This document shows positions 3,281-55,404 of a stretch of DNA of 64,000 nt, piece by piece. Origin of the DNA: Calditrichales bacterium. GTDB taxonomy: Bacteria; Calditrichota; Calditrichia; Calditrichales; J004. The position numbers and the translations under genes were made by a program. Positions within the stretch are counted from its first letter, which is position 1. Each line of letters starts with the position of its first letter. The DNA is taken from positions 1,408,001-1,472,000 of the forward strand of contig OZ254086.1 of the NCBI GenBank assembly GCA_965267575.1, given 5' to 3'. The notes under the pieces were generated by a model, which was not told the origin of the DNA, made no database searches, and was given only the letters and a program-made list of their open reading frames with translations.

Positions 3281-5011
3281 CTAGTTCATACCCTGAAAAA
3301 TGAAATAAATGGCAAAGCCCACACCGACAAGCGCTTCACCAACGATCAACCCTGCGGCAGCCGGGATACCAACCTGCTCGCTCCAGCCTTTGCCCATTTT
3401 CCAATCGGTGAACAGGCGCAGCAAAGTGCCCAGGCTGTAGGTTAGGACGATATTAAACGGGAGATAGAATCCCAGCCCGACAAGCACACCGAGTCCGCCC
3501 ACACCGCTGGCGCTGAGCAACGCTCCCAGTCCGGCACCGGCGATATATTTTTGAACAGGCACATCACCGCCCAAAATACCATCAATCATGCTGGCCAGGG
3601 CCTGACCCTGCGGCGCCGGTAAACGTTCGCTGCCAAGACCGTATGCTTCGTGCAGGATGAAGATCAGCACCATGATTACCGCGGGACCGATCCAGACACC
3701 CCAGAACTGACCGGCCTGTTGCTTGCGTGGCGCGGCACCGACCAGGTAACCGGTTTTCAGGTCCATCATCAGGTCCGTTGCCTGGGACATGGCCACACAG
3801 GCAGCGGCGCCAACCAGCAGGGATGAAATGATGGCGGCGCGATCGCCCAGACCCGAACTGATGATGATAAGAATGGTAACCGCGATCAGCGTCATACCAC
3901 TTAACGGCGACCAGTTGGTACGGCCGATACATTCGGCAAGAATGACACCGGCTACCCAGACCCAAACCGTACCCAACAAAGCCATCAACGCGCCACGGAA
4001 AAAGCCCATCTCTTCCGTTGAATAAATGGCTATGGCGAAAAGCAGAATCGCGGCCAGGGCGACGGCAACATAGAGTAGCTTGATCGGCATCTCTTCGGTG
4101 GAAACAGCCGTTTTTAGCTTCGAAGCCGTTTGCATACTGCGGATGGCGCTGGTAATAAGCGGCAGGGCCAGGACGATGCCCATCATGGCACCGCCGATCA
4201 GCATACCGATACCCACAGGGCGGAACAGCTCATAGCGCAAATAGCTGGGCATCGATTGTCCTGCTTCGGCCAGCACTTCGGGTGTAGGCAGCAGGCCCAA
4301 TCCCGAAAGAATAGGAGCTAACACCCAGTAACAGGTAAAGCCGCCGACGATAAAAAAGAAGCCGCCTTTACCGGCGATGTAGGCTGCGCCCAGCGTCAGC
4401 AGCGACACGTACCAGACGCCGTTCATGTACTCGGGCATACCGATCTGCGCGCCAAGGTTCCAGTTTTCAAAGCCTGTCGTTTGGCTGATAAAGTGTAGAA
4501 TCGCACTGACCGCCGCGCCTCCCAGAAGATAAAACGCCTTACGAATCCCGGCACCAGGAGATTTTAGAATAGTAGCGACCGCCACGCCTCCGGGATAGGT
4601 CAGTCGCTCAAAATCTATCATTTGCTTGCGCAGCGGTATAATAAAAGCCACGCCCAAAACACCGCCGGCGATACAGGCAAAGACCATCACAACAGCATTG
4701 AAATCGGTCTGCCCCAGAATAAACAAGGCCGGTACCGAAAACATCATACCGCTGGATGCGCCGTTAACGGCACTGGCCACTGTCTGGTTGATGTTGTTCT
4801 CGATGATGCTGCTGCGCCCCATCAGACCGCGAAGGATACCAAAACCAAGAATGGCCGCCAGCTCCGAGCCCTCGATGGAAAAGCCCAGAATAAGGGCGGC
4901 GTAACCGATGCTTAATGCGATCAGAATTCCTAAAACATAACCCACAAGTACCGCGGTAGGTGTCAGTTCAGGATACGGCCCGCGCCGTACAATATGCTCC
5001 GTTTGTGCCAC
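3281..5011 (-). CDS. OPT/YSL family oligopeptide transporter
   Basis: Multi-TM protein with PELT, ENNINQTVASA, LTYPGGVAVA, DLKTGYLVGA and LPAPQ motifs. GTG start at 5011 after GGGGA is preferred to 5083. Confidence 0.9.
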   Translation of the reverse strand: MAQTEHIVRRGPYPELTPTAVLVGYVLGILIALSIGYAALILGFSIEGSELAAILGFGILRGLMGRSSIIENNINQTVASAVNGASSGMMFSVPALFILGQTDFNAVVMVFACIAGGVLGVAFIIPLRKQMIDFERLTYPGGVAVATILKSPGAGIRKAFYLLGGAAVSAILHFISQTTGFENWNLGAQIGMPEYMNGVWYVSLLTLGAAYIAGKGGFFFIVGGFTCYWVLAPILSGLGLLPTPEVLAEAGQSMPSYLRYELFRPVGIGMLIGGAMMGIVLALPLITSAIRSMQTASKLKTAVSTEEMPIKLLYVAVALAAILLFAIAIYSTEEMGFFRGALMALLGTVWVWVAGVILAECIGRTNWSPLSGMTLIAVTILIIISSGLGDRAAIISSLLVGAAACVAMSQATDLMMDLKTGYLVGAAPRKQQAGQFWGVWIGPAVIMVLIFILHEAYGLGSERLPAPQGQALASMIDGILGGDVPVQKYIAGAGLGALLSASGVGGLGVLVGLGFYLPFNIVLTYSLGTLLRLFTDWKMGKGWSEQVGIPAAAGLIVGEALVGVGFAIYFIFQGMN

Positions 5012-5207
5012 GCTGAGTCCCCCTATGTGTGAAAGTAAGTTGCAAGTTGCGTACTTAAAATAAGGAAATCGGCCATTTCTCAAAACAAAAAATAATCTGC
5101 AAAAGAACAGAAATATCAGTTGATTTTGTGAAATAATTCTTTATTATATATAGAATTTTTAGATAACCTTCCATAGGGGACTGGATGGGGACGGAAGGGC
5201 GTCTGCC

Positions 5208-46584: not shown

Positions 46585-47349
46585 TTACGACTCCTGCAAA
46601 TAAATACGCTGCTGCAGGTCGTCGATGGTGTCCGGTGCGTGGCCTTCATAGTGGTTGTTGGCAAAGGCAAAAACCTCGAGGCCTTTCTCCATAAACGCGC
46701 GGATACGCCCGGCCCACCAGTCCAGTTCCAGCGACCGGTCAAGGGTACGTTCAGTAAAATCATCGCCGGTCACTTTGCGGTTGCCGATAAGCCGGATGTA
46801 AACAAAGGCGGCTGTTTCAATGCTCAGCCGCGGCATGTAATAGAGATCGTTTAAGACCAGCGCGATGTTCAATCCGCGCAGGCGATCATAAAATGTGGGA
46901 TTGAGCCAGCTTTTGTGGCGCACTTCTACGCAGAGCCGCGCCTCATCACGGTGCCGTTCCAGAAAATCAAACAGGACACGTTCAAATTTGGCTGCGGTAA
47001 ATTTGTAATCAAACTGCAAAACCACGGGACCAAGACGCGGGCCAAGGCCGGACATAACCTCCATAAATTCACGCCACAGATCATCGCAATCCTGCAGGCG
47101 CTTTTCATGGGTGATCTGTTGCGGAACCTTGGGGGCAAAGCGGAAATCCTCTGTTGTTACGGCTGCCCATTTCTCAATGGTCGTAGGCCGTGGCGTGCCG
47201 TAAAACGTGGAATCGATTTCGACCACATCAAAACGCTTGGCATACTGCCGCAGAAAGTCCGTCGATTTGGAACCGGGCTCGTAAATCTTTCCCAGCCAGT
47301 CTTTATAGCCCCAGCCGGAGGTGCCGAGATGTAGCAGCTTTTTGTTCAT
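46585..47349 (-). CDS. DUF72 family protein
   Basis: GTSGWGY..W, VEIDSTFY, K.P..ITH, EVRH.SW, NNHYEGHA. Confidence 0.9.
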   Translation of the reverse strand: MNKKLLHLGTSGWGYKDWLGKIYEPGSKSTDFLRQYAKRFDVVEIDSTFYGTPRPTTIEKWAAVTTEDFRFAPKVPQQITHEKRLQDCDDLWREFMEVMSGLGPRLGPVVLQFDYKFTAAKFERVLFDFLERHRDEARLCVEVRHKSWLNPTFYDRLRGLNIALVLNDLYYMPRLSIETAAFVYIRLIGNRKVTGDDFTERTLDRSLELDWWAGRIRAFMEKGLEVFAFANNHYEGHAPDTIDDLQQRIYLQES

Positions 47350-49778
47350 CAGCGCAGCAAGACCATTCTTTTTTCAAAACTGTGACCGCCGGCCTGCAGC
47401 TTGAGAATGTAGATGCCTGATGCCGCGGGCGTGCCGTTTGCGCTGTTGCCATCCCATACCAGTTTTGTTTCGCCGGCGGATGCGCTGCCGTTTACCAGTG
47501 TGCGCGTTTTGCGGCCGTGGATGTCGTAAACGGTCAGCCGGACGTCCTGCGCTTTGGGCAGATAAAAGCGCAGCGTGGTTTGCGGGTTAAAGGGATTGGG
47601 ATAGTTTTGATAAAGCTGCATGGCTTGCGGCTGTAACGGCTTCTCTTCGCCGATATGATCCGGCGTATCCCGGTAACCAATGATGGCGATATCGTCAATA
47701 TGCCAGCCGTCGAATTCCACGTTGCTGTCCGAGGAGAGGTTAAAGCGCAGATAAAGCGAATCACTGCCGGCGTAGGTGCTGAGATCGATAAGCTCGTGCA
47801 CCCAAATCAGTTGCGTACCGTGATAGCCGGGTTCGTTAAGGTCCTGCCGCCCGTAACCGGAGCCGGGATAGCTGAAAAGGCCGCTCAAAGCGTTCCAGTT
47901 GCTGCCATCCGTCGAAGCCTGAACGATGCCAAAATCATAACCGGTTTCAATGGACCAGCGCGTGCGGAAGCTGAGGTAAATGTTTTGCAACGAGTCTGCC
48001 GGGAGGGCTTTTTTCAGCACAAAGCTGCTGCTAAGATTGGAGCCGTAGTCGGAGCCGGGGCTGTCGCTGTAATGATTTTCTCCGCTATAAGAGTCGCTGC
48101 TTTCTTTGGCCCAGGGGCCCTCAAAAAGGGAGATTGTACTGTCGGCATTGTCGGTCATCAGCAGGTTGGGGATGCCTACAAGAAAAGTTCCGACCGGTTG
48201 ATAGTGCGTATAACCGTTATGGTCAATTTCCAGAAACAGATCGCTGACGAGGCCGCGGCCGGCTGCCATGCTTGCTATGACGGGAATGGTCAGGATGGTG
48301 TCTGTCTGCGCGGCCAATGAATCCAGCATGATGCTTTCTGTTAGCGGCAGAATGTCCTCGTTTTCGTTGAAGATATTTATCCGGGCATCAGCGGCAGTCC
48401 CAAGCCCGATGTTGCGAATGCGAAATTGAATGTTGACGGAATCACCCGGCGCAACCCAGGTGACCGGGCTGTCGTTTTGGCTTAATGTGTAACCCCGGAA
48501 GCGCAGCAATCCGCCCGCGGCTTGTGCCAAAACCAGGTTGGGATAAAGGTTCTCGCGGGCATGCGGATAGATGCGATCTATGTCAGGCCAGAAACCGTCG
48601 GTATAGCGGCCCACTTCGGGCGTCATCGAGAAAATCTTGTTTTTCTCTTCCTGCTCGCCGTACATCCAGTCGTCGGAATCGCCATTAACCAGGTAGCCGA
48701 CAGTTTGATCGCCGGTGCCGTAGACGTAGCGGTTGTCGCGCGTCATTTCCATACCCAGGTAACGAAAGGCCGTGGAGTCTTCCGTCTCAAAGGAAGCGAT
48801 GTAGCCCCAGGGATAGATCAGCAGGTTGGAGTAGGTGTGATAGTTGAGCGCCAGCCGGAATTCGTGCAAAAAACAGAAATCGCGAATGGCCTGTGTTTCC
48901 GGCTCTGAGAAAGGCCCCGTGCCGCGGTACACGGCGCTGGAAGGATTGGAGCTGGAACCGTTGTCGTCGTAACCCCAGGTGTGGCCGTAGTTGCGGTTGA
49001 GGTCTACACCATAACTGCCGCCGCCGTTGTCGCGGCGGTTTTTGCGCCAGTATATGTTGCCCTCTTCGTAGCCGTTTTGATTATAGAGATAACCATCGGG
49101 ATTGATCATCGGGACAAAATGAAGCTGGCGGTTTTCCAGCAGGTAGGTGACCTGCGGGTCCAGGCCGTAGTTTTCCAGCAGGTACCACATAAAATAGACC
49201 AGTGTCTGCATGCTTCCCGGTTCGCGGGCGTGGTGCAAAGAAGTATAAAGCACTTCCGGCTCCTGCTCCTCATATACCTCGGGATTGTCGGAGATTTTCA
49301 CCGTCCAAATGCTGCGATCTTCTATAGTTTTACCGATGGAAGACTTCTCCGTAATTAAATGCGGGTAAAGCGATCGCATGGAATCCAGCTCGGCCTCAAA
49401 TTGCTCTTTGGTGTAAAAACCGCCCAGGTCGCCCAGCTCAAAGTTGACGGGATCGTCGCTGTTTTCCAGCTGCGCTATGTCCGGCCATTGCTTTTTGCGG
49501 CGCTGGTAATCGGCAAACAGGTCTTCCACGGTGATGCGGTAGGAAAAACCGGAGGCCTTAAGCAGGGCCATTTCATCCTGACCCAGGATTGTTTTTAGCA
49601 CAAAGCTGCCGTCAGCTTTCTCCAGGTGCGCGTGGTCCAGGATAACGCCGGCCCCGGCCAGTTCTGCAATCTCAGCTTTGGAGTTAAGCAAAATATCCAC
49701 TTTGCTGTGAATGTTTTGTGCCGGCGCAGGGGCCGTAAGCGCAAATACAATCGAAACTAAAATTAAAATCCGTTTCAC
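47349..49778 (-). CDS. Secreted M14 zinc carboxypeptidase (carboxypeptidase T-like) with C-terminal FlgD/T9SS-like domain
   Basis: HAREP, WRKNR, DLNRNY, YHTYS, TPEVG; C-terminal QNYPNPFNP...YDIHGR...SGIY. Confidence 0.92.
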   Translation of the reverse strand: MKRILILVSIVFALTAPAPAQNIHSKVDILLNSKAEIAELAGAGVILDHAHLEKADGSFVLKTILGQDEMALLKASGFSYRITVEDLFADYQRRKKQWPDIAQLENSDDPVNFELGDLGGFYTKEQFEAELDSMRSLYPHLITEKSSIGKTIEDRSIWTVKISDNPEVYEEQEPEVLYTSLHHAREPGSMQTLVYFMWYLLENYGLDPQVTYLLENRQLHFVPMINPDGYLYNQNGYEEGNIYWRKNRRDNGGGSYGVDLNRNYGHTWGYDDNGSSSNPSSAVYRGTGPFSEPETQAIRDFCFLHEFRLALNYHTYSNLLIYPWGYIASFETEDSTAFRYLGMEMTRDNRYVYGTGDQTVGYLVNGDSDDWMYGEQEEKNKIFSMTPEVGRYTDGFWPDIDRIYPHARENLYPNLVLAQAAGGLLRFRGYTLSQNDSPVTWVAPGDSVNIQFRIRNIGLGTAADARINIFNENEDILPLTESIMLDSLAAQTDTILTIPVIASMAAGRGLVSDLFLEIDHNGYTHYQPVGTFLVGIPNLLMTDNADSTISLFEGPWAKESSDSYSGENHYSDSPGSDYGSNLSSSFVLKKALPADSLQNIYLSFRTRWSIETGYDFGIVQASTDGSNWNALSGLFSYPGSGYGRQDLNEPGYHGTQLIWVHELIDLSTYAGSDSLYLRFNLSSDSNVEFDGWHIDDIAIIGYRDTPDHIGEEKPLQPQAMQLYQNYPNPFNPQTTLRFYLPKAQDVRLTVYDIHGRKTRTLVNGSASAGETKLVWDGNSANGTPAASGIYILKLQAGGHSFEKRMVLLR

Positions 49779-49916
49779 GATGCGATCCTTTTTTTATGAA
49801 TGTTTTTAATATTAGTGCACCTGCCAACGCGCCGCAAACAAAAGAGTGCCCCGGCAATTTGAAAAGCATGCGCGTATCCGATATTTTCAAGCTCTGAATT
49901 AAACCTGCTCATCCGC

Positions 49917-51725
49917 ATGTTTTCGATCATAGACTGGCTTATCATCATCGCTTACCTGGTTTTTGCTTTTGCCATCGGCGCGCTAATGACGCGCAAGGCG
50001 GGCACAGGCCTGGACTCCTACTTCATCGCCGGGCGCAGTTTGCCCTGGTGGTGGCTGGGCACATCGATGGTCGCTACGACCTTTGCCGCCGATACGCCGC
50101 TGGCCATCACCGGCATCATCGCCAAAGACGGTATCTCCGGCAACTGGTTCTGGTGGAGCTGGATCATCACCTTTGTCACGATCACTGTATTCTTTGCCCG
50201 GCGCTGGTCGCAAAGCGGCGTGCTCACCGACGTGGAGCTGATCGAACTGCGCTACAGCGGACGTCCGGCGTCCATCCTGCGTGTGTTCAAGGCGCTGTAC
50301 ATGGGCGTGATCGTTAACTGCGTGATCCTGGGCTGGGTGTTCCGGGCGATGAGCAAAATTACCAGCCCCTTCATCGACTGGCAGATTATTCTTGGTTCCG
50401 GCGTTTATAACAACCTGCTCAACTTCTGGCCCGGATTCCTCATTTTTGACAATTTTAATAACACGCTGACCGTGCTGGTTATTTTTGTTATTGTTGTCAC
50501 CTACAGCAGCATGGGCGGTATCCGCGGCGTTATTTTAACCGACCTGTTCCAGTTTGTTTTGGCCATGGGCACGGCGATCATTTTCGCGGTACTGGCGGTG
50601 CAGCATGTCGGCGGCTTGGGAGAACTGTTTGCGCAGATGCACCAACTTTACCCCGAACGCGGCGCGGACTTCCTGCGTATCTGGCCCGATTTCGACAATG
50701 TGCTTTTGCCGTTTGAGGTGTTTCTCATTTTCATCGCCATCCAGTGGTGGGCGCAGTATTACTCCGATGGCTCCGGCTACCTGGCCCAGCGCATGAATAC
50801 GGCGCGCACACCGGCGGACGCGGAAAAAGGGACCTTGTGGTTCACGCTGGCCAACTTCTGCCTGCGCACCTGGCCCTGGATCATGGTCGGGCTGGTGGCG
50901 ATTGTCGTTTTCCCGCTGGACGATCCCGCCAGGTATTACGCGCTTGGTGAAAGCGTGGCCGGCGACCGCGAGATGGGCTACCCGGTGCTGATGAAACTGA
51001 TCCTGCCGTCGGGCTTACTGGGCCTGACTTTCGCCAGCCTGATGGCCGCCTTTATGAGCACGGTGGACACGCACATCAACTGGGGCGCCAGTTACATGGT
51101 CAACGATCTGTACAAGCGTTTCTTTAATCCTGCAGCCTCGCAAAAGCGCCTGGTTCTTGCCAGCCGCGTCAGCGTTATTCTTATTTCGCTGGCCGCCGTG
51201 TTGATAGCCAGCCAGATCAGTTCCATCGAAGAGGCCTGGAAGTTTTTTGTCGCCCTGGGCGCCGGGCTGGGTCTACCGCAGATGCTGCGCTGGCTGTGGT
51301 GGCGCGCCAACGCCTGGACCGAGATCAGCGGCATGGCGGCGGCGTTTGTCAGCTCCGTTTTTCTTTACACGGCCTTCCCTGATACCCGCTCGGAGTACCT
51401 CATCTTCTGGAGCGTATTGATCAGCACGGCCGTGGCATTATCCGCCACATTTGTAACAGCGCCGGTGCGCGCTGAAACGCTGCGTCAGTTTGTGGACAAA
51501 ACATCACCGGTGGGTTTTTGGGGCGTTTACACCGTAAAAACAGAACAGCGCAAAAAAGAATTCAAACAGCGATTGCTAATATGGCTATTGGGGCTGATTA
51601 CCTGTTTTGCCAGCGTATTTGGTATAGGCTACCTGTTGCTGCTGGACTGGCCGTTGGGACTGGCGTTGCTCGCTTTGTGCGTGGTGTGTTTTTGTGCCAT
51701 GCTAAAACGGATGAAGGCGAAATAG
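49917..51725 (+). CDS. Sodium:solute symporter family protein
   Basis: [41 protein letters not shown]. Confidence 0.92.
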
Positions 51726-51740
51726 GCTTTTCGCCGATTC

Positions 51741-51784
51741 CCTCTTTTTCCTTCTCATTCTCGTTATCTTTATCGTATCTTTAT
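51741..51784 (+). repeat. Degenerate hexamer repeat (NTCNTT)
   Basis: ctcttt ttcctt ctcatt ctcgtt atcttt atcgt atcttt. Confidence 0.6.
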
Positions 51785-51789
51785 TTCAC

Positions 51790-51825
51790 CATGAAGGCCA
51801 TGAAGGCCATGAAGAGCATGAAGGA
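51790..51825 (+). repeat. 4 x 9-nt tandem repeat CATGAAGNN
   Basis: catgaaggc catgaaggc catgaagag catgaagga. Confidence 0.9.
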
Positions 51826-51897
51826 AAATAATGCCACGACGGTTTCTTGATCATGATCGTGCTCCTGATCAAAGAGAATGTACCCTTCTGGGCAAAG

Positions 51898-51953
51898 ATC
51901 CCGGTGTGGAAAAAGCACCAACCGGGATGACACTTTGGGCTGTCATTTCCCGG
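51898..51953. repeat. ATCCCGG...CCGGGATGAC palindromic element
   Basis: atcccggt (51898) pairs with accgggat (51921); alternatively ccgggatgaca pairs with tgtcat(tt)cccgg. Confidence 0.55.
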
Positions 51954-51982
51954 CGGGGATATTTTCAGCTTGAAGGAAAAAT

Positions 51983-52007
51983 GTAGAGACGCAAAATCTT
52001 GCGTCTC
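51983..52007. repeat. GTAG-type REP-like palindrome, copy 1
   Basis: GTAGAGACGCAA-AATC-TTGCGTCTC. Confidence 0.9.
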
Positions 52008-52038
52008 ATTGAATTAGAGAATGATAATGATTATGAAA

Positions 52039-53098
52039 ATGAAAAAGACCTTTACGCGGCTGCCGCTCCTGGCCTTATCGTTTTTCTGCAGCGAACAGCC
52101 AACAGACCCGCCTCCCCAACAAGACGTTTGCGAAATAAGCGACACGACAACCCATAACTTTACCTGGCATACGGACACATTGGGCGAGTGGCCAAGCGTT
52201 TTATATGATGTTGCTGCTGTTGATGAGAATAATGTGTGGGCCGTGGGCGACATCAAAAAAGCGGACAGCCACTATAATGTTATTAAATGGAACGGGGAGT
52301 CTTATGATTACTTATCATTAAAACTACATGCATATGGCGGCAATAATCCTCTTTATCAAGAGCTACGCTCATCAATAGCTTTTTCCGTAAATGATGTTTG
52401 GGTTTTTCCCATAGGGGGAGCTTATGCGCATTGGGATGGTAGCAAGTGGGAAAGTGAATATTTTGGGACCTTCCAAAAAGGCATTACCCTTGATGTATGG
52501 GGTTCCTCTTCCAACGATATTTTTATTGTCGGCTCAAACGGCTCCATTACCCACTACGACGGCTCATCCTTTACGCTTATGGAAAGCGGAACGGACGTGG
52601 AACTGCGCGACATCACCGGCTATGTCGATCCGGAGACCGGGCTGACCCACGCCTGGGCCGCAGGGCCATTGACATTGCTGCATTACGATGGCTATGAATG
52701 GCAAACAGTGTGGGATGAAAACAATCCCCTGGTTCCGGACGGCTACATTCATCCGGCGGCCATACATGATATTAACCATGAACAGGTTCTGGTCGCTGCT
52801 TACAAGCCGATTGAAATCAGCGGTTATTGCATCAATACAAAAGACCCTGCCGACTTCCGCCACATTTTTACGACGGACTTTTTTCCATACGCCATTAGCG
52901 GGAGCAACGCTTAGTGACATCTTTGTTGTAGGAGAATGGGGAAATATAGCACACTTTAATGGCGCCAGTATTATGAAATATCCGGAGTCAAACTCAGGTG
53001 TAAACAGAAACGTGAGTTACGTAAACGACCACGTCTTTGTCGTCGGTCCGCTTGCCGAACAATTAGGGTTATTTGTCAGAGGCAGGAAAATTCCTTAA
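52039..53098 (+). pseudogene. Frameshifted beta-propeller-like lipoprotein, paralog 1
   Basis: The frame stops at TAG 52912-52914. The +1 frame continues SDIFVVG...AHFNG, which aligns with NDLFVAG...VHFNG of paralog 2. Could be a sequencing error. Confidence 0.75.
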
Positions 53099-53120
53099 CG
53101 GGCGTCTATGAAGAATAAAT

Positions 53121-53145
53121 GCAGAGACGCAAAATCTTGCGTCTC
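53121..53145. repeat. GTAG-type REP-like palindrome, copy 2
   Basis: GCAGAGACGCAA-AATC-TTGCGTCTC. Confidence 0.9.
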
Positions 53146-53176
53146 ACCGGATTAGAAAATGATAATGATTACGAAA

Positions 53177-54244
53177 ATGAAAAAGATTCTTGCGCTATGG
53201 TCGTTTTTATGCTTGGCGCTCTTTTGCAGCGAACAGCCAACCGACCCGCCGCCTGATGAAAAAGAGCTTTGTGAAATAACGGACACTACGAGTCATGCTT
53301 TTACCTGGCGAGTTGACACTCTTGGCGCTTTTGGAAGTGTATTGATGGACGTGGAAGCTGTTAGTGAAAACGAAGTGTGGGCATGCGGGGAAATCGAGCT
53401 TAAAGAGCGTCCGGAAGTTGACAGATACAATGTGGTAAGATGGAATGGGTCTGAGTACGAATTCTTGAAAGCAAAAGCATATGGCGGTGTCTCTCTTGCC
53501 GAAGCGATACTGCCCTTCCCTGATGGGACGGTCTGGGTATTTATGGCAGGTGTAGCGTATTCGTTTTGGAATGGAGATTCCTTTAAAACCGAATATTTTG
53601 ACGGAGAAGTGACCGGGCGGGTAATGGATGCCTGGGGCACCGCTACAGATGACTTTTATGTTGTCGGTCAATTCGGCTCAATCGCCCACTACGATGGTAC
53701 CTCTTTTACTCCGATGGAAAGCGGAACGGATATTACACTTTTCGAAATACAGGGCTATGTGGATCCGCAAACAAATAAGCAACATATCTGGGTTTTGGGC
53801 TTCGTGACCGGTCGCTCGGTTGTACTCAAGCTGGAAGACGGCGTTTGGAAACATATGTGGGAAATGGAGATGCTGCAGAATAACTTTCGCTTCCCGCAGT
53901 CTTTGTTCATTGATGATTCCGAAACGGTCGTCATGTCTGTGTGGAGTGGCCTGGATCAACGGGGCAGGCTTTATTGTTTTGACCAAAACGATTTTACCAA
54001 CTATCGACTGCTTGCCGAACATAGCGCGTATTCTCGGGGTTTTGGTGGAACGGGGATCAATGACCTTTTTGTCGCTGGCATTAATCAATATAATATTGTT
54101 CACTTTAATGGTTCCACGGTATTTCAATATAGCGAGCTCAGGGCCGCCGGTCTTCTAACTGAAATAGCAACCTTAAATGACAAAATATACATAGTGGGAG
54201 ATACTGCAGGCGGTGCTCATGCGGTAATCATGCATGGCTGGTAA
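53177..54244 (+). CDS. Beta-propeller-like lipoprotein, paralog 2
   Basis: Signal peptide ending in Cys (CSEQPTDPPP), DTTSHAFTW, repeated vWa.G / HYDG..F / HFNG blades. Confidence 0.85.
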   Translation: MKKILALWSFLCLALFCSEQPTDPPPDEKELCEITDTTSHAFTWRVDTLGAFGSVLMDVEAVSENEVWACGEIELKERPEVDRYNVVRWNGSEYEFLKAKAYGGVSLAEAILPFPDGTVWVFMAGVAYSFWNGDSFKTEYFDGEVTGRVMDAWGTATDDFYVVGQFGSIAHYDGTSFTPMESGTDITLFEIQGYVDPQTNKQHIWVLGFVTGRSVVLKLEDGVWKHMWEMEMLQNNFRFPQSLFIDDSETVVMSVWSGLDQRGRLYCFDQNDFTNYRLLAEHSAYSRGFGGTGINDLFVAGINQYNIVHFNGSTVFQYSELRAAGLLTEIATLNDKIYIVGDTAGGAHAVIMHGW

Positions 54245-54248
54245 AAAT

Positions 54249-54276
54249 GTAGAGACGCAAAATCTTGCGTCTCTAC
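54249..54276. repeat. GTAG-type REP-like palindrome, copy 3 (perfect 12-bp arms)
   Basis: GTAGAGACGCAA-AATC-TTGCGTCTCTAC. Confidence 0.92.
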
Positions 54277-54294: not shown

Positions 54295-54561
54295 CTAAAA
54301 ATCAAAAAGATCATTCAGGAAATTTTTCTTCTTGCGTTTCTTGTAATCGTAATCATCATCGTAATCCTTGCGGTAGCTTTGTTCGCGCCGCTGGCTCTGG
54401 GCGGGTGCTTGTCCAAATCCGGCGGTGGCGCTGCGCTCGATGATTTTATCAAGCTCACCGCGGTCCAGCCAAACGCCGCGACACTGCGGGCAGTAGTCCA
54501 CTTCAATCCCCTGCCTGTCGGCGATTACAAGGGTTACATCTTTACATACCGGGCAATTCAT
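54295..54561 (-). CDS. zf-TFIIB zinc-ribbon protein
   Basis: CPVC...IEVDYCPQCRGVWLDRGELDKII...FL.DLFDF; AGGAG SD. Confidence 0.9.
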   Translation of the reverse strand: MNCPVCKDVTLVIADRQGIEVDYCPQCRGVWLDRGELDKIIERSATAGFGQAPAQSQRREQSYRKDYDDDYDYKKRKKKNFLNDLFDF

Positions 54562-54721
54562 ACTCTTTCTCCTTTGTGGGTAGTGTTTTCAATTACTCGC
54601 GTTAACGATAGACAAAAAATTAAGATTCCTGAAATCGGTTTGAAGAATTGATTTGCGAAAGGAGCCTTTTTATTTATATTTGCTAAGCGATTGTATGTTT
54701 TTACTAAGCAGGACTAAAGTT

Positions 54722-54979
54722 ATGATTAATCACAAATCAGTCAAAGTAAGCAACCGTTTTCAAATTGCACTTCCCAGCGAGGCGAGAAGGAAATTGAACA
54801 TTCATGCCGGCGACCGGCTTTTGGTTGATATTCAGGATGGAGCCATTGTGCTGGTACCGCGCCCGGACAGCTTTACAAAAAACCTGGCGGGACGCTACGC
54901 AAACATCTGGAGAGAGCTGAAGTCTGCTGAATATTTGGCGCAGGAGAGAAATGATTGGAAAGACTCAGTAAGCGGCTAA
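54722..54979 (+). CDS. vapB: AbrB/MazE-type antitoxin
   Basis: KVSNRFQIALPSEARRKLNI..GD.L; overlaps the PIN gene. Confidence 0.82.
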   Translation: MINHKSVKVSNRFQIALPSEARRKLNIHAGDRLLVDIQDGAIVLVPRPDSFTKNLAGRYANIWRELKSAEYLAQERNDWKDSVSG

Positions 54980-55404
54980 AAAGCCATCAAATAGTTGCGC
55001 TGGATACTTCCATTTTAATTTATCATTTCGAAGCGCGCACAAAGTATCTGCCTTTAACGCATATCATTTTGGAAAATATCGAAACCGGAAATAACAAAGC
55101 CGTAATTTCCACCATTTCCCTAATGGAAATAGCCGTTGGGCCTTTGCGCTTTAAACGGCACGACATTGCCCAGCAATACGAAGCGCACCTGGCAAATTTT
55201 CCCAATCTTTACATTGCAGATATAACACGCGATGTCGCCCGCAAAGCAGCTTATATCCGGGCGGAAGATAAACTGGCTCCCCCCGACTCATTGCTTATTG
55301 CAAACGCGATTATTAATGGGGCGACGTTATGGCTTACTAATGATAAAAGACACGACAGGCTTAAAGCGGAAATAGACGTGTTGATCCTCGATGAGTTTCT
55401 ATAA
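54955..55404 (+). CDS. vapC: PIN-domain toxin
   Basis: LDTS, E, PDS and TND acidic tetrad; TTG start after AGGAG. Confidence 0.88.
   Translation: MERLSKRLKSHQIVALDTSILIYHFEARTKYLPLTHIILENIETGNNKAVISTISLMEIAVGPLRFKRHDIAQQYEAHLANFPNLYIADITRDVARKAAYIRAEDKLAPPDSLLIANAIINGATLWLTNDKRHDRLKAEIDVLILDEFL

Follow-up and report, generated by a model that had tools for sequence, protein, structure and literature searches.

Layout of the locus

A 64,000-nt stretch (the window) of the genome of a Calditrichales bacterium (G000, a single contig of 4.73 Mb) carries, between a symporter gene and a zinc-ribbon gene, two tandem lipoprotein genes, designated W1 and W2, and three copies of a short hairpin-forming repeat of the repetitive extragenic palindrome (REP) type, in the order REP-W1-REP-W2-REP (Table 1). 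Within the window the core of the palindrome, GAGACGCAAAATCTTGCGTCTC, has exactly three + strand occurrences (51986, 53124 and 54252), and 100 shuffles yielded none. With the head included, the palindromes begin at 51983, 53121 and 54249; these three copies and their spacings of 1138 and 1128 bp had been recorded in a first-pass annotation made from the sequence alone, and were exact on re-checking. The match at 64 of 70 positions between the two 70-nt leaders (W1 and W2) was re-counted and holds, and the identity between 51977-52007 and 54243-54273 was confirmed to be exactly 31 nt long and to take in the final two bases of the W2 stop codon (54242-54244). Each interval had been said to hold one paralogous gene; W1 and W2 are indeed paralogs (41% protein identity), but W1 is not intact, its reading frame being interrupted by a frameshift.

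Table 1. Features of the W1/W2 locus (positions are those of the window)
Feature	Position	Strand	Description and basis
Spacer, symporter gene to REP copy 1	51726..51976	none	Patchwork of at least three other short genome-wide repeats (blastn-short)
REP copy 1	51977..52007	+	A-rich 5' flank, GTA, 9-bp stem, loop AATC; right-hand TAC absent; RNA fold gives a 9-bp hairpin
Leader 1	52008..52048	+	13 nt, then ATGATAATGATTATGAAAATGAAAAAG start region; 64/70 against leader 2
Gene W1 (type 1)	52021..53098	+	Beta-propeller lipoprotein paralog with a +1 frameshift near 52895/52896; open reading frames and alignment to W2
REP copy 2	53117..53145	+	Head GCAG, not GTAG; 22 nt past the W1 stop codon and 13 nt ahead of the first W2 ATG
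Leader 2	53146..53186	+	Leader comparison
Gene W2 (type 2)	53159..54244	+	Intact, 361 aa; predicted signal peptide, Cys23, proline-rich linker, seven-bladed beta-propeller
REP copy 3	54243..54276	+	Full 28-nt palindrome, 12-bp stem, A-rich 5' flank; between the convergent W2 and zinc-ribbon genes
Zinc-ribbon gene	54295-54561	convergent with W2	Pfam Zn_ribbon_TFIIB, E 2.4e-20

The encoded proteins and the W1 frameshift

The W2 product was predicted by inspection to be a lipoprotein, with a hydrophobic N-terminus followed by Cys23, which is nearly invariant among 19 homologs. It matched no Pfam family at E values up to 1 and no NCBIfam family, and a search of 5.8 billion proteins returned 21 homologs, the best of which outside the genome was 56% identical and one of which was named as coming from a Calditrichaeota bacterium. 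The family is probably confined to this bacterial order (probably Calditrichota). Structure prediction, a check proposed in the first-pass annotation, gave an AlphaFold2 model of W2 (predicted local distance difference test, pLDDT, 87.6; predicted template modelling score, pTM, 0.83; alignment of 19 sequences) with an N-terminal helix at residues 3-21, a proline-rich linker and a seven-bladed beta-propeller. When the model was compared with the PDB, the top nine matches were Ycf48 chains (E 2.9e-10 to 1.6e-9), the best being 5ojp_C, with TM-scores of 0.64/0.75 over 330 aligned columns and 12-13% identity. On the strength of this model, W1 and W2 are predicted to be Ycf48-like seven-bladed beta-propellers.

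W1 is read in two frames, first from 52021 to 52914 and then in the frame of 52688-53098, while its orthologs in three relatives of other genera (G005, G003 and G007) are single-frame. The extra base lies at the TT of CCATTAGC (52895/52896; region 52879-52900). Base 52895 was left out in runs X1 (depth 24.6/24.6) and X2 (4.8/4.8), restoring the frame of the orthologs, and run X3 ('organism A') showed 0 differences from the window; X3 may be the genome's own sample, so its agreement is not independent confirmation. Because the site is not a long homopolymer, the frameshift looks like the mark of a recent pseudogene rather than of phase variation.

A low-copy REP and its RAYT-like gene

The palindrome is a real, low-copy and generic REP. 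In the 4.73-Mb genome its core is present in 18 copies at up to three mismatches, plus about seven variant or half copies, with the consensus AAAYGTA-GAGACGCAA-RATY-TTGCGTCTC-(TAC). GTA stands directly 5' of the 9-bp core in 14 of the 18 copies (GCA in window copy 2), and a full 12-bp stem, in which GTA is paired with the terminal TAC, is formed in six, window copy 3 included. All copies except one (17/18) lie outside credible open reading frames, the sole exception being inside a gene related to the REP-associated tyrosine transposases (RAYTs). The sites are mostly between convergent or co-directional genes, often just past a stop codon, and the same REP is found at about 13 unrelated loci of the genome, mostly at gene 3' ends. 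The copies cluster, with five within 22 kb at 2.67-2.69 Mb and four around one gene at 1.114-1.115 Mb. Relative to replication direction, as judged by GC skew (cumulative minimum at 1.32 Mb, maximum at 3.85 Mb), 15 of the 18 share one orientation; this bias fits a single-strand, replication-linked spread but is confounded with gene orientation.

Among 40 compared relatives the REP was found, at up to one mismatch, in eight copies in G028, three in G010 and one each in G007, G013, G035 and G040, and in none of the other 34; in G028 the eight REPs and two genes of the lipoprotein family lie on separate contigs. It was also found in at least 140 metagenome stretches from many habitats. At 80 metagenome REP loci examined there was no homolog of the lipoprotein family, and five had a RAYT homolog within 1.5 kb. 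The metagenome REPs often stand in clusters of alternating orientation with spacings of about 90 and 176 nt, resembling bacterial interspersed mosaic elements. A metagenome scan for the REP together with the W leader returned 0 stretches, so there were no further strains with the exact unit to compare.

The first-pass annotation had placed the palindrome in the REP class acted on by RAYTs, and the genome does hold a cognate RAYT-like gene with REPs before, inside and behind it. The gene encodes a 184-aa HUH/Y1 protein (1114494-1115048 of G000, minus strand, approximately 345 kb from the locus), which matched NCBIfam NF047646 (REP-associated tyrosine transposase, REP_Tyr_transpos) with an E value of 4.5e-13 and 49.3 bits, under the curated cut-off of 80 bits, and Pfam Y1_Tnp at E 0.27 only. 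The REP inside the gene is in frame and read as VETQNVAS; further REPs lie 5 and 116 nt upstream as an inverted doublet, and a half REP lies just downstream (region 1114455-1115186). The same palindrome is kept in frame by the RAYT orthologs in G010, G013 and G035 (loci L029, L030 and L026). By inspection against the published description, the motifs NHIH, GWQ and YIVNNP, the length of 184 aa and the in-gene REP fit TnpAREP subclass 2.4, for which Quentin et al. 2018 (PMC6006769) give the motifs NH[IFV]H, WQ and YIxNNP, a length near 194 aa and a REP lying inside the gene; this subclass is equivalent to RAYT group 4 of Bertels et al. 2017 (PMC5581495). A cognate HUH/Y1 gene flanked by its own REPs, the arrangement that marks a REP-RAYT system (REPtron), is thus present, and the assignment to the REP class holds, with the caveats of a low copy number, a GTA that is part of the stem in the full copies and an NCBIfam score below threshold. 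A second RAYT paralog (4440831-4441397 of G000) contains a different in-frame palindrome, and five further Y1_Tnp genes in the genome are IS200-like and flanked by other repeats.

Distribution of the REP over the gene family

Nine family members were identified by tblastn at six loci of the genome: the W1-W2 pair, a tandem trio A-B-C at 4.10 Mb and four single genes, D, E, F and G. A and B are each preceded by a REP oriented as at W1 and W2; for all four genes the REP ends 13-31 nt before the start codon, despite the W1/W2 and A/B leader types being unrelated to each other. The trio has the order REP-A-REP-B-decayed REP-C-half REP: the copy ahead of the intact gene C is changed at 6 of 25 positions, and the half copy lies past the C stop codon. 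The C leader is approximately 95-100% identical to the B leader despite the decay of the adjoining REP. Between the A stop codon and the next REP there is a fossil 3' end of the B/C type (...FLPSVQDDK*; trio at 4099363-4103095). No copy of the REP was found at the single-locus paralogs D, E, F and G; E and F nevertheless have the ATGATAATGATTA start region and leader and the CSEQPT(D/Y)PP block seen at W1 and W2. The check proposed in the first-pass annotation, whether other paralogs carry the same REP and leader, thus gave the REP with another leader type at A and B (with decay at C) and no REP at D to G, E and F having the W leader alone. The REP is enriched beside the family, both tandem arrays being bracketed by it, which is contrary to the lack of enrichment that the annotation had named as evidence against its reading. 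Of the 40 relatives, 28 have family members, a single genome giving as many as 10 matches, often located on short contigs.

Age and stability of the W1/W2 pair

A maximum-likelihood tree of the C-terminal half of the proteins separated two clades, {W2, G5b, G7_C15} and {W1, G5a, G3, G7_C141, G7_C2}, each with 100/99 support and each spanning other genera, so that the W1/W2 split is older than a split between genera. In G005, which belongs to another genus, orthologous W1-type and W2-type genes stand in the same tandem order. In a pattern search the genomes of G005 and G003, whose spacers hold other hairpins, gave 0 copies of this REP, which is also absent from the family orthologs in G005, G003 and G007. 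The G005 tandem pair without the REP and the two-clade tree together imply that the REPs arrived after the duplication. An origin of W1 and W2 by unequal crossover between REPs was rejected on the same ground of age.

The location of the family varies by genus: its members adjoin ybeY in G003 and G007 and, in the present genome, lie between the symporter gene and the zinc-ribbon gene. The W1-type ortholog of G007 (L023, G007:C141) is flanked on both sides (about 3730-3800 and 5055-5120) by a direct repeat of about 60 nt with the palindrome TTCTGAATCCGGAGATTCAGAA; the G003 ortholog at the same ybeY-linked locus is without this repeat. Behind each lipoprotein gene of G005 and G007 comes the gene of a secreted protein with an NGH(G/D)H motif (L018, G005:C239, 1664-1939 and 3156-3533; L024, 127-2304; L022, past 4632), and no such partner gene stands behind W1 or W2 in the window.

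A relative in metagenome run X1 was represented by one 42.9-kb contig collinear with 47000-54276 and by a second contig that continues from 54249, with 228/2504, 187/2334, 54/487, 50/1271, 100/1636 and 191/2002 letters differing in the individual pieces (4-11% divergence). No X1 indel was listed at any REP position, the letters there not being displayed. Two blocks of W1, of 197 nt (within 52249-52447) and 72 nt (within 52933-53006), were too diverged from X1 to align at 80% identity, while the W2 region (53006-54276) differed at 50 of 1271 letters, roughly half as much as the flanking genes; this uneven divergence suggests uneven selection or recent exchange. The X1 and X3 contigs break at REP copy 3, and the X3 contig spans 51978-54272, as would be expected of a 31-mer repeat in an assembly graph. 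The read data were assembled contigs in all four runs, and contigs drop rare variants, so that rare junctions could be lost. The joints 52006>54250, 52008>54252 (with 28 foreign letters between) and 54274>51896 were considered as signs of deletions or circles and rejected, as their sides, 24-32 nt long, come from a metagenome, and joints with sides under 30 nt or read at a likeness under 95 are flagged as stemming from repeats or other organisms; the joint 51933>52020 (side of 29 nt) was rejected on the same grounds. Run X7, which has the same species label, gave short repeat matches only.

These results bear on the proposal of the first-pass annotation that a unit of REP, leader and gene is gained, lost or shuffled by recombination at the repeats. 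The gene types are ancient, the G005 pair exists without the REP, the X1 relative is collinear, the leader occurs without the REP at E and F, the REP at C is decayed and the breakpoints of exchange lie inside genes (see below), all of which speaks against such a unit. The likeness to an integron array drawn in the same annotation was not upheld either, there being no variation of cassette content between relatives (X1 is collinear and G005 has the same order); both instead have the fixed two-gene arrangement that it had named as evidence to the contrary. On this idea the segment from one REP to the next would be a cargo-carrying, non-autonomous element of the IS200/IS605 (insertion sequence) kind, cut in trans by the RAYT at the two directly oriented hairpins, released as a single-stranded circle and inserted elsewhere. 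The shared direction of the three REPs, the common orientation of 15 of 18 copies relative to replication, the presence of a RAYT-like gene and the different places of the family in different genera would all suit an element of this kind. However, neither unit has a second copy in the genome (the best other paralog has 24-40% protein identity), the arrangement is unchanged in the X1 relative at 4-11% divergence, the ancient gene types keep the same tandem order in the REP-less G005 genome, neither the relatives' loci nor the read data showed an empty site, some 345 kb separate the Y1 gene from the locus, and all joints at REPs in the read data have sides of at most 32 nt from a metagenome and were flagged as repeat artefacts. 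We consider this explanation highly improbable.

Concerted 5' ends and mosaic genes

At the DNA level, the block from the lipobox cysteine to FTW was 78% identical between W1 and W2 and 99% identical between G5a and G5b (100% at third codon positions), compared with 62-65% for orthologs across genomes. The relation was reversed in the C-terminal block, where W1 and W2 were 49% identical and orthologs 61-69%. Sliding identity had its maximum (90-98%) at the 5' end in the pairs W1/W2, A/B, A/C and G5a/G5b. In A/B the tract of high identity begins at the left edge of the REP, in B/C at its right edge, and in W1/W2 it begins 12 nt to the left of the REP.

Further inside the genes the relationships change from segment to segment. 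B and C were 84-100% identical at both ends and 35-52% identical over a middle of about 240 nt, in which C was 55-72% identical to D; D and E were 95-100% identical over the first 200 nt or so, then 33-53%, then 82-97%. The 5' parts of D, E and F, which lie at three REP-less loci, are nearly identical, and across genera the N- and C-terminal parts of the propeller are combined differently, for example in G3 and G7_C15. Since the breakpoints of the B/C and D/E mosaics are inside the genes, exchange occurred within genes and not at REPs. A diversity-generating retroelement was considered as the source of the variable segments and set aside, the segments differing by about 60% and the changes, by inspection, not being adenine-specific.

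The positions of the tracts could also be read as evidence that the REPs are recombination hot spots, at which hairpin extrusion or nicking by the RAYT starts conversion tracts or unequal crossovers, homogenising the 5' ends and growing both arrays. This would account for high-identity tracts that begin at or near REP edges in A/B, B/C and W1/W2, and for REPs bracketing both tandem arrays and being missing from the singles D, E, F and G; the 95-100% identity of B and C outside the replaced stretch of about 240 nt likewise indicates that the A array was recently active. It does not agree with the stronger 5' homogenisation (99%) in G005, which lacks any copy of this REP, with the near-identical 5' parts of D, E and F at three REP-less loci, or with a W1/W2 duplication that is older than the REP, and the REP at the B-C junction, between recently related genes, is the most decayed copy. 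Hot-spot activity of this kind is in our judgement unlikely.

The REP hairpins as possible RNA signals

On the + strand no T-run follows the REP stems, while on the minus strand each hairpin is followed by (T/C)(A/G)CATTT and that of copy 3 by ATTTTT; a terminator scan marked all three REPs as terminator-like on the minus strand (copy 3 at 54276-54249). The fold z-scores of the hairpins ranged from -2.1 to -3.9, with -3.85 and -3.49 for copy 3. As no T-run stands behind the hairpin on the + strand, the REP was dropped as a sense-direction terminator of the upstream gene. REP copy 3 sits 19 nt past the stop codon of the convergent zinc-ribbon gene, and may therefore end that transcript. A sigma-70 scan gave six sites in the region against 5.4 expected, none of them in the leaders, and a reading of TTGCGT-N18-GATAAT across REP copy 1 as a promoter was dropped, as it had no counterpart at the leaders of A and B.

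REPs elsewhere are known as 3' untranslated region and mRNA-stability elements (PMC3733652; 10.64898/2026.03.23.713779). The REP could be a selected cis-regulatory hairpin that sets lipoprotein expression as a stabiliser of the 5' untranslated region, a translational element or an insulator against read-through from the upstream gene. Its constant orientation and its end 13-31 nt ahead of the W1, W2, A and B start codons, despite unrelated leader types, would agree with this, as would the conservation of REP and leader as the best conserved non-coding part of the unit (64/70) and a stable stem of 9-12 bp that is terminator-like on the opposite strand. Such a function would, on the other hand, have to be dispensable at E and F, which have the W leader and no REP, and at the orthologs in G005, G003 and G007; the REP ahead of the intact gene C is decaying; the scan gave no sigma-70 promoter in the leaders; and the REP is at home at some 13 unrelated loci of the genome and in at least 140 metagenome stretches, with a family gene at 0 of the 80 loci examined. 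We therefore give little credence to a regulatory role under selection.

Interpretation

Our preferred reading, held with moderate confidence, is that W1 and W2, members of a mosaic lipoprotein family, form a tandem pair of old standing, that the spacers were colonised by a generic subclass-2.4 REP and that REP and leader were spread or kept alike by gene conversion at the 5' end. The duplication that gave the tandem pair is ancient, and W1 appears to have been broken recently by its frameshift. After the duplication, all three spacers would have gained a copy of the generic REP that belongs to the remote RAYT system, and a conversion tract that took in the end of the spacer, the leader and the opening codons would pass a REP on from one gene to the next. 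We infer that conversion, rather than repeated site-specific insertion, copied the REP between the leaders; repeated insertion into the same target is a possible alternative source of their likeness. At the most, the hairpins would serve in RNA or DNA form as terminator, insulator or mRNA stabiliser, and not as sites of cassette recombination.

Several points weigh against this account. None of the 40 compared relatives is of the same genus, and the X1 relative is known from contigs only. The tracts of high identity that start at or beside a REP edge would also fit conversion initiated by the REP, and the three REPs of the window are directly oriented, as are the two ends of IS200/IS605 elements. 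The reading does not account for the bracketing of both tandem arrays, and of no single-copy member, by REPs in the same sense and 13-31 nt before the starts in two unrelated leader types. As REPs cluster locally, the enrichment comes down to some two independent arrivals at loci of the family, among about 14 REP loci, for which the chance was put at about 1e-3 in a rough, post hoc estimate. If the REPs were instead working recombination sites, a subclass-2.4 RAYT or hairpin extrusion would nick or stall there, starting conversion or the occasional excision of a REP-gene segment and leaving uniform 5' ends and reshuffled bodies. We think this improbable; it would amount to a host use for a domesticated RAYT.

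With regard to what RAYTs and REPs do for their hosts, an array with same-sense REPs on both sides of every gene would be a natural place to look for REP-dependent recombination. The evidence points for the most part to REPs that are late colonisers of an old gene pair, so that no new type of cassette system is seen at this locus; what it holds is an element of a known kind within a mosaic gene family of moderate interest. It adds a clear example of the subclass-2.4 RAYT/REP type in a genome of the Calditrichota kind, where the REPs show a strand bias with respect to replication, and a non-random enrichment of REPs at the two tandem arrays of one gene family. The Ycf48-like propeller lipoproteins, which are found across the order, combine concerted 5' ends with internal segment swaps, and this suggests a diversifying pressure on an envelope protein.

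Other features of the window

When the spacer ahead of W1 (51726-52020) was compared with the genome by blastn-short, matches fell in blocks at 51776-51825 (4-7 matches), 51836-51875 (9) and 51886-51935 (8), followed by the REP block (17-19). The repeats within 51726-51976 comprised a tandem of the CATGAAGGC type, a GATC-rich module and a CCCGGT...ACCGGG hairpin, with 4-9 genome matches each; the GATC-rich module also adjoins the REPs at 1115165 and 4103074 of G000. With at least three repeat families in addition to the REP pieced together between the symporter gene and W1, these spacers appear to act as landing pads for small repeats generally. By eye, 54653-54979 and 54955-55404 resemble a pair of an AbrB/SpoVT-type antitoxin and a PIN-domain toxin, and 47349-49778 resembles an M14-type peptidase with a C-terminal tail for type IX secretion.

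Comparison with known systems

The closest likeness is to the REP/RAYT systems with a TnpAREP of subclass 2.4, with which the present system shares a short GC-rich extragenic hairpin, a single cognate HUH/Y1 gene, a REP in frame within that gene and flanking copies. It differs in copy number, 18 full copies standing against the more than 100 per genome that are usual (PMC2817692). The GTAG-type REPs have an unpaired GTAG at one end (PMC3733652), whereas here GTA pairs with TAC in 6 of 18 copies and is not a free tail in those; the host phylum is not among the phyla listed for GTAG repeats in the Results of that paper. From its Discussion comes the case of Thauera sp. MZ1T, whose exopolysaccharide genes are flanked by GTAG-1 arrays with a suspected effect on expression (Di Nocera et al. 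2013, PMC3733652). There, as here, REPs stand beside clustered, functionally related genes; in the present genome it is single REPs that bracket each gene of two paralog arrays.

Tandem duplications with a REP at the join point were reportedly described in Salmonella by Shyamala, Schneider and Ames in 1990. The order REP-gene-REP-gene-REP is what would be expected from such unequal crossing-over between REPs, but W1 and W2 are older than the REP, and the genes are 41% identical while the REP cores are identical. IS200/IS605 elements have two directly oriented ends, and directly oriented hairpins are found here as well; an element of this type with cargo differs from the present locus, where the Y1 gene is remote and neither copies nor an empty site are seen. 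With integron arrays the locus shares one promoter-less-looking gene per unit and a hairpin-forming imperfect palindrome at the unit boundaries, and it differs in having no variation of cassette content, a generic REP that is also found at unrelated loci, and paralogs of one family with conserved leaders of their own.

For the proteins, the resemblance to Ycf48/HCF136 lies in the predicted seven-bladed propeller. The identity of 12-13%, the lack of a Pfam match and the occurrence as a lipoprotein in a non-photosynthetic lineage make it a likeness of fold only. The vls system of Borrelia, pilE/pilS of Neisseria and tprK of Treponema are mosaic surface-protein families that are diversified by segmental gene conversion. 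In the present free-living environmental bacterium no layout of expression site and silent cassettes was seen, all members being full genes with their own leaders; what it has in common with these families is that conserved 5' ends and islands flank variable segments that are exchanged between paralogs, as in the D-like middle of C (35-48% identical to B).

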